This document shows positions 30,001-33,000 of a stretch of DNA of 44,273 bases, piece by piece. Source of the DNA: a candidate division WOR-3 bacterium. Lineage in GTDB: Bacteria; Hydrothermota; Tepidihabitantia; Tepidihabitantales; CAIPLT01. The stretch is from positions 1-44,273 of the forward strand of contig CBFGJZ010000003.1 of NCBI GenBank assembly GCA_965649215.1. The letters are read 5' to 3'. Made by a program: the position numbers. Each line of letters starts with the position of its first letter. Position 1 is the first letter of the stretch.

Positions 30001-33000
30001 TATTTCCTCGGGAACTTGATAAATATATACCTGCTGTTTTTCTTATTGGTATGGTTCGTTTAAGAAAAGATGAGAAACAAAAAGAAAAAAGAAATGGTGG
30101 CAATTCTGGAAACGGAGTTAAATTTTTGAGCTGATATTTATATAGAAATTAAAATTTATCAAATATTATGGATTATACATTGACAAACAAAAAGTTCACT
30201 ATATAGTAATTTACAATTACTATCCTCGTAACTAAAATGAATAGCATAAATCTACCCCCAGACCTTAATCTTGTTTTACAGGATTTGGTCCAAAGTCAGG
30301 AAAAGATACTAAAAGATAATTTTGTCGGTTTCTATCTGCAATATTCTTTTGATAATTAAAATTAATAATTTCGACGCTTACGTCCTTCCAGTTTTATAGT
30401 TATATTTTTCTTACATCATTTTCACTCTTTCCCCCAACATTATATCTATATCCTATAGTAAAAATTATTATTATATTGACAACCTTATATTAAAGGTTTA
30501 CCATTTTAGATATGCGTTTTATTTTCTTGTTAGCGATTTTATGTTCGCTAGGATTTAGTTGGATTGTAATTAGCAACGCTCCTTATGACCAACGCCAGTC
30601 GAGCAGTGCATTTCTAAATAATCAATATCTGGTTGTTTGGTCTGATGCACGAGCGTGGCAGACTTATCAAGCCAATGTAATTTATGGCGCTCGCGTTTCT
30701 GCTTCTGGTCTGGTACTTAATCCCAATGGCTTTTTGATAAATGGTGGTTATCCAGATCGATTATTACCAAAGGTCTGTGCAAGTAGTTCTGATTGGCTAG
30801 TGATTTGGCAAGAAGGTTGCTGATTTACTCGGGATATTAAAGGTGCTCGGGTAGCGCCGAATGGTAATATCATTAATACTTTTATTATTAATAATCAAAT
30901 TGACGACCAGCTTTTTGCCGATATTGCTTTTAATAATCAAAATTATCTCGTCGCCTGGGAAGATCGTCGCGAAGACCCGACTCAAATCTATTACACTCTA
31001 ATTACTCCAACTGGTCAAGTAATAAGTCCAAATGGCAATAAAATCAGTGGTAAAGATCCGTCTGAATACTATCGCACACCTGCGGTGGCTTCTAACCATC
31101 GCGATTATTTAGTAGTCTGGTTTGGCGTTCGGCTCAGTGGCGATGTCGTTTTAGCATCACGAGTTGATAATGATGGTGTAATTATTGATAGCGTTCCTTT
31201 TGAAATATCAACTGACACAGTATTGCTGAATCAACTTGCGGTAAGCTCGGATGGAGAAAATTATTTAGTAGTTTGGACTACGCAAACTCCTGACACAATT
31301 GGCTTAGATTTAGTTTTCAAACGAATTGCCATCGATGGCTCAATCCTTGATACAATACCACATTTAATTGCTCGTAATCATAATGGAATCTATAAACCTG
31401 CAATAAGTTTTAGCGGTGGCTGTTATTTAGTAGTTTGGAATCAAGAAGATAATATTTTTGGTTGTCGTATCTTACCAGATGGCACAGTCCTTGATTCCAA
31501 TGGTTTTAGTATTTGTGTTGATACATTTCAGCAACTTGAACCCGCCATATCAAGTGATGGCCATCGTTTCTTTGTAACTTGGACCGACAACCGTAACGAT
31601 AATTATGACATTTATGGTGTATTTGTTGATAGTTTAGCCAATGTTAGCATTATTGAAAATATCTCATCGCTTACAAATAATCATTTCAATGTTAATATTT
31701 CCCCAAATCCATTTACCAGTAAAATAAATATTAAAAACAATTCAGAAATTAACTTTCTCAAAATATATGATATTTCTGGGAAATTAGTTAAATCATTTAC
31801 TAACGCATCTACACAAATAATCTGGGATGGGGAAAACAATCAAGGACAGATTGTACCTAATGGCGTATATTTATTAGAATTACAAAGCAATAATAACAAA
31901 ATCACTCGTCGAGTAATAAAATTAAAATAAAAAGGCGAAGCAATTATGAGTCGCTTCGCCTTACAATAAATTTATTAATAACTATTTCGCAATATAGAGC
32001 GTTTCCGCAATAGAAAATGTGGTGTTATTCCAATTGCCAGCTACGGTTACAATATAGTCACCTGAAGGAAGTGGCGCGCCACTGGTGTAAGCCCAACCAT
32101 TAGAATAATATTGGGTATTGGCAGTTTTGGGACCATTTTGCGATGGATCAGTTGCTGATTGACCACCGGGAATAGTTAACATCCACGAAGTAACTGTGCA
32201 ATTATCATTAAAACTATATGTAAAATTAATCCAGCCATTAATATCTCGAGCCGCGCTGATGGTCATAATCAGCTCTTTATAAATCAACATTACAATATCA
32301 CCCACATCCGTCATCTTTCCTTCTTTAACCGTTACTTGCGTACCGCCGTAACCAGGTGTATAAGTGCCGCCGTGCACACCTACAATGTCATTATTGTCAA
32401 CAACCCCACTGCCGTTTAAATCTTTCCAAGCTAAAATATAATAATAACCTTCGACCACATCCGTAAACTCAAATTCGGATTTGGTTTGGTCAACGCCCGT
32501 CGCATCAGAGGCAACTTCTTTCACTGGTGTACCCGTTAAATCCGAACTAACATATAAACGCACCCTTGAATTACGCACATCACCCGATTGACCAGTTTGA
32601 AGAATCAGTCGCCCACGGATACCCGTTTCTTTTTCAGGACAAGAAATGGTCATAGCAATCACAAACATCAATGCTATCGTTAACAACTTTTTATGGATCA
32701 TTTGATCCTCCTTTGTTTTAGTTTTGTTGTTTAACAACAACTCAAAGATTATAAACTTACTACGGGACTTGTCAATAGTAATATTTTATTTATTACTTTA
32801 TTGCCACAAGCACAATCACAAAATTTTATCCTGCTCATTAGAACAATAATTTATATGCTGAAATGATTAGCCAATCTTTTTATATTTTCTCTGATAAACC
32901 AGCAATATAACCACTACTCCAAGCAAATTGCAGATTATAACCACCTGAGACACCGTCGATATCTAATATTTCGCCCGCAAAATACAATCCTTTGTGTAAT

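Follow-up and report, generated by a model that had tools for sequence, protein, structure and literature searches.

A predicted selenocysteine-containing, T9SS-exported beta-propeller protein family from a candidate division WOR-3 bacterium

A gene in the window, the whole 44,273-nucleotide stretch of DNA analysed here, most probably encodes a selenoprotein in which an in-frame UGA is decoded by way of a hairpin and SelB, the product being a propeller protein exported by the type IX secretion system (T9SS). Taken as a whole, the evidence is best explained in this way. It is very likely that the gene belongs to a new selenoprotein family, absent from current catalogues, that uses the standard bacterial decoding.

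When the TGA is read as selenocysteine (Sec), translation gives a single frame of 472 residues at 30512-31930 on the forward strand, closed by a TAA stop. The lone in-frame TGA (30821-30823) is codon 104, and together with the preceding TGC it specifies a Cys103-Sec104 pair (30818-30823, forward strand) in the motif WQEGC-U-FTRDIKGARVAP, as an earlier note on this DNA had read it. Under table 11 the frame is split into a piece of 103 amino acids (30512-30823) and one of 281 amino acids with a GTG start (31085-31930, forward strand), such that the earliest in-frame start lies 87 codons past the TGA, the distance that had been given before. The public gene call for the window gene is this 281-residue fragment (record P0002), which we regard as a truncated reading by gene callers rather than as a separate gene. 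The claim that there is one gene of 472 codons, not two, is supported by full-length relatives with a single TGA and by a continuous AlphaFold model, in which an unbroken seven-bladed propeller runs across the TGA with pLDDT above 90 nearby.

The family comprises at least 49 genes (the window gene and 48 more) from 34 genomes of one phylum and falls into several subfamilies, so that the six orthologs counted in the earlier note were an undercount. Protein searches of the phylum genomes gave 22 of the genes; a DNA pattern scan gave 38, of which 11 were already in the set and 27 were new. All family sequences come from metagenome bins. The TGA occupies the identical column in 49/49 genes (DNA alignment columns 10-12). 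Each of the five orthologs named earlier (G001, at 58% identity, G008, G015, G032 and G024) has exactly one TGA, and the conserved position that had been claimed for them extends to the same alignment column in all 22 protein-search genes. In these 22 the codon is TGA, never TAA or TAG, and the flanking sequence is conserved on both sides; four of them terminate in TGA, and therefore TGA is an ordinary stop as well in such genomes. Among 21 aligned proteins, which share 27-58% identity with conservation running through the Sec site, the Sec column does not vary and 20 carry Cys103. The residue before Sec is Cys in 21 of the 22 protein-search genes and Ser in G001.

The 49 genes range from low to high G+C across the 34 assemblies, and 47 are without a further stop. 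Two copies may be pseudogenes, one with an extra TAG (G092) and one cut at 158 amino acids with a mismatch in its stem (L108). Up to seven family copies are found in one genome. The family tree places groups A and C together (SH-aLRT 90), has group B on a long branch of uncertain position, and points to an open reading frame maintained over long divergence; the Sec site may have a single origin. Synteny around the 22 genes is found only among close relatives, with no partner gene common to all. When metagenome contigs were searched with P0001, two loci only were found, both weak and partial. Among the sequencing runs listed for this DNA none was of RNA, and the contigs listed from them were short, with no piece spanning the TGA. 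The nearest public proteins (P0003-P0013 and P0016) are 47-60% identical, have 348-375 amino acids and start 5 to about 30 residues past the Sec column, the expected outcome of gene calls cut at the TGA.

A DNA pattern of Cys-TGA plus the motif codons was used to scan 185,579 species genomes, and it yielded 38 matches. The scan preset the Cys codon, stem pairs 1, 2 and 4 and the allowed classes at pair 5. All 38 matches lie inside genes that fit the family propeller profile (E <= 1.5e-36). By our own arithmetic, which assumes uniform base composition, the 41-nt pattern carries about 40 bits and would give about one chance match per 596 Gb, counting both strands.

Downstream of the TGA, a SECIS-like hairpin is located at 30842-30858 (forward strand), with a 6-bp stem (30842-30847 with 30853-30858) and the 5-nt loop CGGGU (30848-30852). 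It starts 18 nt past the A of the UGA, that is, 21 nt past the U. The earlier note had described a hairpin at this distance in six genes, one of them mismatched, and this was borne out, the mismatch being a single C-A in G015. RNAalifold, to which the hairpin was not supplied, recovers the same hairpin from the 22 protein-search genes. Paired cells make up 99.2% in these 22 genes and 291/294 (99.0%) in all 49. Compensatory changes occur in three of the six stem pairs across the 49 genes. Pairs 33-45 (AU 23, CG 8, UA 6, GC 5, GU 3, UG 1, other 3) and 36-42 (GC 30, CG 17, AU 1, UA 1) co-vary through all four Watson-Crick types, and both connect codon third positions and are thus unconstrained by protein coding. 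None of 500 shuffles equalled the real alignment in covariation score or in the percentage of paired cells in the 49 genes, or likewise in the 22, although these shuffle counts, like the Fisher tests, overstate significance because the related genomes are not independent.

The ordinary blades of the repeat provide a matched control. Stem pairs 1, 2 and 4 of the six are dictated by the amino-acid motif alone. At the same 43 loci, all six pairs are formed in 0/57 G[AV]RV[AT]P blades that lack an upstream TGA, versus 20/21 Sec blades; both third-position pairs are formed in 6/57 and 20/21, respectively. Covariation and the matched control thus support the hairpin as real. The comparison of blades also shows that the hairpin is derived from the repeat's own G-A/V-R-V-A/T-P codons. 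These are nearly self-complementary, and a Sec-decoding signal would therefore be easy to evolve here.

The bacterial SECIS model, as set out in PMC13188914 (section 5 and the Fig. 2 legend), has an upper stem of 4-16 bp, an apical loop of 3-9 nt with a G, most often ahead of a G or U, within its first two positions, a distance of 16-37 nt from the UGA to the apical loop, and a minimum free energy of at most -7.5 kcal/mol. The window hairpin falls within the stem, loop, G-position and spacing limits. The distance from UGA to loop is 24 nt in 49/49 genes, in a gapless alignment, and the second loop position is G, followed by G or U, in all 49. Two loop sequences occur, CGUGU (25 genes) and CGGGU (24 genes), with the consensus CGKGU; the loop is weaker evidence than the stem, because Arg CGN and Val GUN codons fix most of it. 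Folded alone, the 17-mer of the window gene has a free energy of -7.0 kcal/mol (median, -6.9 kcal/mol), and -7.5 kcal/mol is reached in 17/49 genes; when 66 nt from the UGA are folded, 49/49 reach that value. An 86-nt fold does not surpass its shuffled counterparts in stability (z = -0.87). The signal is a small hairpin with covariation, not bulk stability. Against Rfam (E <= 10), the region 30700-31000 yielded only two chance-level matches, neither from a SECIS family.

The AlphaFold model of the protein has a mean pLDDT of 87.8 and a pTM of 0.76, with pLDDT of 92-97 across the TGA site. Residues 18-373 (30563-31630, forward strand) are predicted to form a seven-bladed beta-propeller, in which the strand list gives seven repeats of three to four strands and the N-terminal strand 18-21 lies beside the last blade and closes it. 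The top Foldseek matches are all beta-propellers with probability 1.00; CylK gives TM-scores of 0.56-0.61 and PorZ the best E-value. Blade 2 spans residues 83-127 (30758-30892, forward strand) by its strands and the repeat register. Alignment and model together place Cys103-Sec104 in the predicted loop that leads from its strand 2 (95-101) to its strand 3 (108-114), and the order of strands suggests that this loop shares a face of the propeller with those connecting blade to blade.

Both ends of the protein carry predicted secretion signals. Residues 1-17 (30512-30562, forward strand) form a probable signal peptide, judged by eye from a basic start followed by a hydrophobic run, and a similar hydrophobic N-terminal stretch is present in 21/21 aligned members. 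In the AlphaFold model, residues 2-12 form a helix of low confidence and the propeller opens with a strand that starts at residue 18; pLDDT is low over the first 20 residues (block means of 48 and 62) and below 50 at residues 7-14. The Por_Secre_tail that had been reported is a T9SS type A C-terminal sorting domain at residues 396-470 (31697-31921, forward strand), over both curated cut-offs (PF18962, 37.3 bits with a cut-off of 27; TIGR04183, 43.3 bits with a cut-off of 23), and in the AlphaFold model residues 394-470 fold as a beta-sandwich. Of the 21 aligned members, only 8 are matched by the Pfam sorting-domain model (E <= 0.01). The proposed link to T9SS is strengthened by machinery in the genome that carries the window gene (G000), where SprA gives 427 bits summed over one frame (cut-off 200) and a PorU-like sortase gives a full-length match of 409 bits, slightly below the cut-off of 420. 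A search of G000 with P0001 gave 42 matches; besides the gene itself and four weak repeat matches on contig C9, all fall on the C-terminal tail region and belong to other genes.

The same genome encodes a tRNA-Sec (C37:5135-5228), which is the sole UGA-reading tRNA found there by aragorn, together with selB (314.6 bits) and selD (331.9 bits), the latter with an in-frame TGA of its own. For selA, matches flank a stretch of N within the contig; a frameshift was considered and rejected, given that the two frames are parted by that stretch. selB is found in 30 of the 34 gene-bearing genomes, versus 122 of 272 phylum genomes, and was not found in G008 (76% complete), G057 (90% complete), G273 and G276. 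A scan of G000 gave 127 TGAs with an open frame on both sides, four of which have a hairpin of this kind, where about one would be expected by chance. The four are selD, the window gene and two further T9SS-tailed proteins beside sel genes. The 1.6 Mb of G000 hold three T9SS-tailed selenoprotein candidates, two of which adjoin tRNA-Sec, selB and selA. One relative in G000 matches the Omp28-related model weakly (43 bits, cut-off 200); it has a T9SS tail, lies beside the tRNA-Sec and has a similar 5-nt loop, AGUGU, in the hairpin after its TGA.

Sequence alone cannot tell Sec insertion from other read-through, and a hairpin that slows the release factor could allow a near-cognate tRNA (Trp, Cys or Arg) to insert a standard residue. 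The shortness of the hairpin and its weakness in isolation would fit such a process, as would the failure to find a Cys-form ortholog that would indicate a need for a chalcogen. We nevertheless consider it improbable, given that the hairpin agrees with the published SECIS loop, G position and spacing, that it resembles the post-TGA hairpins of selD and the Omp28-like candidate in G000, and that selB and a UGA-reading tRNA-Sec are present as described above. A standard residue could moreover be encoded directly, yet the TGA is kept in every one of the 49 genes. The table 11 reading and the public gene calls, which take the downstream part, would instead make the TGA a true stop, with a 103-residue secreted peptide as product and the remainder either untranslated or a gene of its own. 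The efficiency of Sec insertion is usually low, and a truncated product may also arise. As an account of the gene, a true stop is very improbable: the 87 start-free codons past the TGA form blades 2-3 of the closed-ring model, which is confidently predicted across the site, amino-acid conservation continues through it in 21 divergent proteins, and the 103-residue piece would amount to one and a half blades. A pseudogene or an assembly error at the TGA might be suspected in data drawn wholly from metagenome bins, in which the G092 and L108 copies look damaged. The recurrence of the same TGA column in so many assemblies of low to high G+C, with no other stop in 47 genes and a frame kept through long divergence, makes this extremely improbable.

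The Sec-free paralogs are secreted repeat propeller proteins of 600-1300 amino acids, from the same phylum and others, and the statement in the earlier note that they have no UGA holds, since they, those of 850-1300 amino acids included, carry no stop codon at all. They are named merely as hypothetical, FlgD Ig-like or T9SS sorting-domain proteins, with weak matches to PF12396 (DUF3659). Like the window gene, they have a repeat of about 48 residues (strand, YLVVW, x-D-x-R loop, DIYGARV, strand), and many have the same C-terminal tail. Unlike it, they have Arg at the Cys column in 16/24 and Cys at the Sec column in 0/24, and their GARVTP codons form the hairpin in 0/57. Ordinary blades place the Arg of the W-x-D-x-R motif where the Sec blade has Cys-Sec. 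Most of the paralogs are far longer than the window protein and by their length would hold two propellers each.

No Cys-form ortholog was found in 272 phylum genomes (E <= 1e-50) or among the best matches in a collection of 5.8 billion proteins. A profile search of 1.84 billion representatives returned a large repeat superfamily; its best 150 matches were all long multi-propeller paralogs, and for that reason it could not single out Cys-form orthologs. When 268 proteins were scanned, CC pairs were seen in the same loop of the paralogs P0025, P0050, P0097 and P0252, which were not counted as Cys orthologs. In P0025 and P0050 the pair lies at other offsets from the Trp. In P0097 it is in the register of the Sec blade only if counted from the DIxG end, with a loop two residues longer, and its blade, the sole one so compared, does not align to blade 2 by BLAST. 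According to PMC13188914, most known selenoproteins have Cys-containing homologs; those of prokaryotes are mostly cytoplasmic or periplasmic oxidoreductases, nearly all with Cys twins, on which homology searches depend. The present family, with no Cys twin found, a propeller fold and a tail for surface secretion, would be missed by standard searches for Sec/Cys pairs.

Selenoprotein-specific models of Pfam and NCBIfam gave no match, in agreement with what had been noted before; NCBIfam gives only the sorting domain and chance-level repeats. None of the 119 families in the 2026 inventory (Table 1 of PMC13188914) is a propeller, a repeat protein or T9SS-tailed, and neither that review nor the deep-Sep paper mentions propellers, T9SS, secretion or WOR-3. 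By the description in PMC13188914, genes that depend on SelB and SECIS, for which E. coli formate dehydrogenase is the type case, resemble the window gene in having an in-frame UGA and a small stem-loop inside the coding region, with G and then G/U early in the loop (24 nt from the UGA here) and tRNA-Sec, selA, selB and selD in the genome. The window gene differs in encoding a repeat propeller rather than an oxidoreductase fold, in forming its hairpin from a motif present in every blade, and in that no Cys-form homolog was found.

By the established bacterial pathway, a ribosome that meets UGA104 would insert selenocysteine after the hairpin at 30842-30858 recruits SelB with Sec-tRNA(Sec). The 472-residue precursor would pass the inner membrane via its N-terminal signal peptide and fold into the seven-bladed propeller, and T9SS would then move it over the outer membrane via the C-terminal sorting domain. 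The PorU-like sortase would cleave this domain and anchor the protein on the cell surface. There, the adjacent thiol and selenol could make a reversible selenenylsulfide for redox chemistry on an external substrate, for example disulfides, polysulfide, sulfur or peroxide. That such a Cys-Sec bond is indispensable is made less likely by the closest relative, G001, which has Ser before Sec.

Alternatively, the pair could act as thiolate and selenolate ligands that chelate a soft metal or a metalloid (Hg, As, Cu, Cd or an organometal), a non-redox function that would leave Sec decoding unaffected. A surface location fits the capture of external ions, many predicted selenoproteins bind metals according to PMC13188914, and the entries with a CU motif in its Table 1 are mostly metal-related: MerB-like SaoL, HgcA, SaoC, SaoB, MbdU (a metal-binding double selenoprotein) and a CopZ-family 2Fe-2S protein. 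Metal binding is possible but rather unlikely, given that the 21-protein alignment has no second invariant ligand (His, Cys or Met) near the pair, that G001 is without the Cys, and that genes for metal resistance or transport are not conserved beside the gene. The CU-motif selenoproteins of that table (SaoL, SaoC, SaoB, HgcA, MbdU and KCU-star) share the adjacent Cys-Sec pair with the window protein, but none is a propeller or T9SS cargo and their NCBIfam models do not match it.

Other known proteins resemble the window protein in part. Mammalian thioredoxin reductase, a flavoprotein, has a GCUG at its flexible C-terminal end; the likeness to this centre is chemical only. The pair described here is internal (residues 103-104 of 472), lies in a propeller loop with no flavin domain, and is Ser-Sec in one ortholog. 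PorZ (PDB 5m11; Foldseek E-value 1.4e-09) is likewise a T9SS cargo with propeller and C-terminal sorting domain, but it has two propellers and no Sec, with a TM-score of 0.22 over the whole model and 9% identity. The Omp28-related selenoprotein NF045500, which PMC13188914 enters in its Table 1 under hypothetical protein GOS_C (UxxC motif), is also a predicted selenoprotein outside the cytoplasm; it has another fold, its UxxC is near the N-terminus and its sequence is unrelated to the propeller.

Read jointly, these results suggest a broader picture that we advance only tentatively. These bacteria may keep a cell-surface selenoproteome of several T9SS-exported selenoproteins, among them a propeller family with obligate Sec. 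Its SECIS and Sec site may have originated de novo within a structural repeat and not through an oxidoreductase exchanging its Cys for Sec, and the exposed Cys-Sec may perform extracellular sulfur, peroxide or metal chemistry beyond the reach of a thiol. If true, this would make the family a clear example of that route. The hairpin itself offers a natural instance of how ordinary codons can give rise to a SECIS. Gene callers truncate the family in every public record examined, and correct annotation is now possible for at least 49 genes. The DNA pattern, all 38 matches of which are true family, provides a compact and highly specific signature for further members, and residues 103-104 on their predicted propeller face are a concrete target for the role of extracellular selenium.

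In the window, the gene is flanked by RmuC, two ORFs in which no Pfam family exceeds the cut-off and an HI0933-like flavoprotein. Right behind the stop codon, a consensus scan places a terminator-like hairpin of 12 bp (31932-31962, assigned to neither strand), which would be common to the window gene and the convergent gene at 31982-32740 on the reverse strand.

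The gene at window positions 30512-31930 (plus strand) is a member of a real, new family of bacterial selenoprotein with standard decoding, and it very probably encodes a selenoprotein. Decoding of the TGA at 30821-30823 gives a single frame of 472 codons with the motif WQEGC-U-FTRDIKGARVAP, in which U is residue 104. Read with table 11, the gene falls into a 103-aa ORF (30512-30823) and a 281-aa ORF whose start comes first at 31085, with no in-frame ATG, GTG or TTG in the 87 codons between, and its public record is the 281-aa fragment (P0002). An earlier note had proposed one 472-codon gene with UGA as selenocysteine, and had placed the next start 87 codons downstream. 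The table 11 ORF list confirms the latter, and the former is borne out by the conserved TGA, a co-varying hairpin and a continuous propeller model. The nearest public proteins (P0003-P0013 and P0016; 47-60% identity, 348-375 aa) start either inside the stretch K-G-A-R-V-A-P or at most about 30 residues past the Sec column, and are therefore read as gene calls truncated at the TGA. In a Pfam and NCBIfam scan, a T9SS sorting domain at residues 396-470 scores over both cut-offs and is all that is recognized, with selenoprotein models unmatched; the note's Por_Secre_tail and its lack of a Sec-specific family in these libraries are thus reproduced. A 12-bp GC-rich hairpin (31932-31962), between the stop codon and a convergent ORF (31982-32740, minus strand), looks like a two-way terminator; a consensus scan reported its T-run for the minus strand.

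Protein searches covered 60 relatives, then the whole order (66 genomes) and then the whole phylum (272 genomes). They yielded 17 genes, each with one TGA at the Sec column, of 467-499 codons, lengths that depend on our choice of start codons. Thirteen of the 17 (group A) are in the order of the window's bacterium, and four (group C) are in one family of another class. Five shorter and weaker matches (group B; 376-435 codons, with one gene truncated at the end of its contig) also contain one TGA each. Stop-free matches of comparable score are paralogs with an open frame of at least 849 aa, except for a stop-free 493-aa stretch of ordinary repeats in genome G211. An alignment of 21 proteins has Sec in every row and Cys before it in 20 rows; the exception is G001, the closest relative, with Ser in place of the Cys. 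The sequence is conserved on either side of the Sec column, with blade 1, for example, keeping W43, D45 and R47 in all rows. The gene from G092 (locus L082), one of the 17 and hence of the 22 genes, has an additional in-frame TAG; it was omitted from the protein alignment and retained in the DNA alignments.

A 41-nt IUPAC pattern, built from the Cys-TGA codons and the codons of the downstream motif, was scanned over one genome per species from 185,579 species. The scan returned 38 matches versus about one expected by chance (our own arithmetic, with uniform base composition assumed). All 38 lie in open frames, some 90-120 codons from the frame's start, and match the propeller profile (E <= 1.5e-36). 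The frame is 418-507 codons long in 33 of them; it is shorter at loci L098 (363 codons), L107 (358) and L108 (cut at 158, with a mismatch in the stem), and longer at L100 (525) and L109 (679), as read by the crude first-start rule of the scan. L108 and the G092 gene look damaged, which may reflect either decay of the copy or faulty assembly. Eleven matches were already known and 27 are new, and 12 of the 15 new assemblies were placed in the same phylum via selB coordinates (families f12, f13, f14 and f20). Seven copies occur in one metagenome bin (L089, L098, L106, L113, L121, L122 and L123), with two of the genes on one contig, separated by about 4 kb; the family has grown by duplication, and the copies retain the TGA and hairpin. 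G015, G041 and others from the protein searches fit the pattern yet are absent from the scan output, which implies that the scanned collection differs from the genomes of the protein searches and that the counts are lower bounds. The earlier note's claim of a UGA at one position in six genes therefore stands as to conservation, which reaches far past those six, and falls short as to family size, which is at least 49 genes from 34 assemblies. Its statement that the repeat paralogs have no UGA agrees with the long stop-free paralogs and the G211 stretch.

A hairpin 21 nt after the UGA had also been described as conserved, and this now extends to the 49 genes. The 6-bp stem and 5-nt loop begin 18 nt past the TGA and can form in all genes; the arms of the window's copy are at 30842-30847 and 30853-30858 (plus strand). 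RNAalifold on a 22-gene alignment returned exactly this helix and no other, and standard pairs are found in 291 of 294 cells across the 49 genes. Pair 33-45 is AU in 23 genes, CG in eight, UA in six, GC in five, GU in three, UG in one and unpaired in three; pair 35-43 is UA in 34, CG in 11 and UG in four; and pair 36-42 is GC in 30, CG in 17, and AU and UA in one each. Shifting the partner by 1-3 columns lowers pairing to 38-67%, and the observed covariation was reached in 0 of 500 shuffles (49 genes, with the same result on 22).

The stem overlies the codons for Gly-Ala/Val-Arg-Val-Ala/Thr-Pro, and pairs 1, 2 and 4 are dictated by the amino acids. In pairs 3 and 6 both partners are codon third positions, and in pair 5 the second base of the Ala/Val codon faces the first base of the Ala/Thr codon. 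Because the motif is part of every blade in the repeat family, other blades without an upstream TGA, drawn from the same 43 loci, were used as a control. All six pairs are present in 0 of 57 control blades versus 20 of 21 Sec blades, and both third-position pairs in six of the 57. Most control blades read GARVTP, with a C-A clash at pair 5 as a result, and the Sec blades have exclusively pair-5-compatible residue combinations. The P values from this control overstate significance, since related sequences are not independent; the contrast is complete all the same.

In its stem, its loop, the position of the G and the spacing, the hairpin also fits the bacterial SECIS model of PMC13188914, a 2026 inventory of prokaryotic selenoproteins; the energy threshold described there is reached only when sequence beyond the 17-mer is counted. 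Among 62,157 TGAs scanned in the window's genome, 127 have an open frame on both sides, and the hairpin follows four of these versus about one expected by chance. The four belong to selD, the propeller gene and two other T9SS-tailed proteins. In the window's gene alone, a 7-bp A/U-rich lower stem (30833-30839 with 30865-30871) can lengthen the hairpin, giving -12.9 kcal/mol over the 60 nt after the UGA; this stem is not conserved in relatives.

By its gene content, the genome (1.64 Mb, 39 contigs, 35% G+C) would decode Sec, as it has the full machinery of tRNA-Sec, selA, selB and selD. The tRNA-Sec (C37:5135-5228) is the sole UGA-reading tRNA detected by aragorn. It is adjoined on contig C37 by selB (314.6 bits), which is in turn adjoined by selA. 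A run of about 97 N (C37, about 7497-7593) lies inside selA, which appears as two frames; a frameshift was ruled out, given that the two pieces are parted by the N run in the contig. The selD gene (C3:101117-102169, plus strand), on the contig of the window, is a selenoprotein gene itself, with an in-frame TGA at 101189, a CAGU-ASK motif and a post-TGA hairpin with GU in the loop. Several orthologs of the propeller gene terminate in TGA, which is thus an ordinary stop codon as well.

The two other T9SS-tailed proteins are encoded on the minus strand of C37 (locus L086). A 642-codon frame (C37:2037-3965), about 1.2 kb from the tRNA-Sec, has a signal-peptide-like start and one in-frame TGA, which places U195 in G-C-U-S-G-H-C; it is probably the first new selenoprotein to which the earlier note's numbering alludes. 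Counted from the U of the UGA, a 7-bp stem with the loop GGUC begins after 16 nt. The product matches a T9SS sorting domain and no other family. A 349-codon frame (C37:3968-5017) directly adjoins tRNA-Sec-selB-selA, and has U38 in G-U-A-S-C (UxxC), a T9SS sorting domain and a 6-bp stem with the loop AGUGU. Its matches to Omp28 and to the Omp28-related selenoprotein model NF045500 (43 bits, cut-off 200) are weak. With the propeller gene, there are therefore three T9SS-tailed selenoprotein candidates in this genome.

Three traits of the propeller family are unusual: the fold, the surface-secretion tail and the finding of no Cys twin. AlphaFold, run on the 21-sequence alignment (mean pLDDT 87.8, pTM 0.76), gives seven strand repeats over residues 18-373, with N-terminal strand 18-21 adjoining the last blade, followed by a poorly modelled linker and a beta-sandwich at 394-470. 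Foldseek matches are exclusively beta-propellers, with the best TM-scores (0.56-0.61) for the CylK propeller and the best E-value for PorZ. Cys103-Sec104 lies in a loop of blade 2 between strands 95-101 and 108-114, and the loop is as long as in ordinary blades. From the A-B-C-D strand order in the model, this loop would be on the face shared with the blade-to-blade loops. Of 24 paralog domains, 16 have the Arg of W-x-D-x-R at the Cys column, and none has Cys at the Sec column.

Export of the protein to the surface is rather likely. Its C-terminal tail region matches dozens of other genes in the genome, SprA is over the cut-off, and a PorU-like protein is full-length and slightly under it. The Pfam tail model is matched by only eight of the 21 aligned family members, so T9SS export is more certain for the window's gene than for the family as a whole.

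Among the top protein-collection matches to the whole protein or to residues 25-135 there is no Cys twin; the latter query returned four proteins, all paralogs (600-780 aa, 28-36% identity). Table 1 of PMC13188914 contains 119 selenoprotein families or subfamilies, and no propeller, repeat or T9SS-tailed selenoprotein appears there or in the main texts of that inventory and of the deep-Sep paper (PMC12013277). Full-text literature searches gave no publication joining a selenoprotein with WOR-3, and nothing related for selenocysteine with type IX secretion or for bacterial selenoprotein with beta-propeller and SECIS. With the Sec-family profile, 199,641 cluster representatives are matched at E <= 0.001, of which 10,084 pass E <= 1e-30. 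Many are 800-4900 aa long; they match PF12396 (DUF3659) weakly, and their source names are hypothetical or FlgD Ig-like. The secreted repeat family is thus very large, and the libraries searched give it no name past DUF3659.

When the 21 propellers and 24 paralog domains (G092 row omitted) were put through a quick maximum-likelihood analysis, groups A and C came out together (SH-aLRT 90), with group B on a long branch whose position is not settled by the tree. That the genes agree in column, spacing, stem length and loop favours a single origin of the Sec site, which would be compatible with the tree, if not demonstrated by it.

By analogy with the established bacterial pathway, SelB would bind the hairpin and bring Sec-tRNA(Sec) to the UGA, and the precursor would pass through the Sec translocon and then the T9SS. 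Chemistry and the catalogue of selenoproteins suggest that an adjacent thiol and selenol on a propeller face could be a redox pair or a soft-metal clamp; we give redox and metal binding about equal weight, and what is left goes to some other function. As G001 has Ser-Sec, the selenol by itself may be what is essential. Adjacent Cys-Cys pairs are also seen in the strand 2-3 loop of one blade in the Sec-free paralogs P0025, P0050, P0097 and P0252, and the repeat family may make recurrent use of a vicinal pair there. In P0025 and P0050 the pair is at different offsets from the Trp. In P0097 it is in the register of the Sec blade when the loop is read from the DIxG end; by BLAST, a comparison made for this paralog alone, its Cys-Cys blade is not aligned to blade 2.
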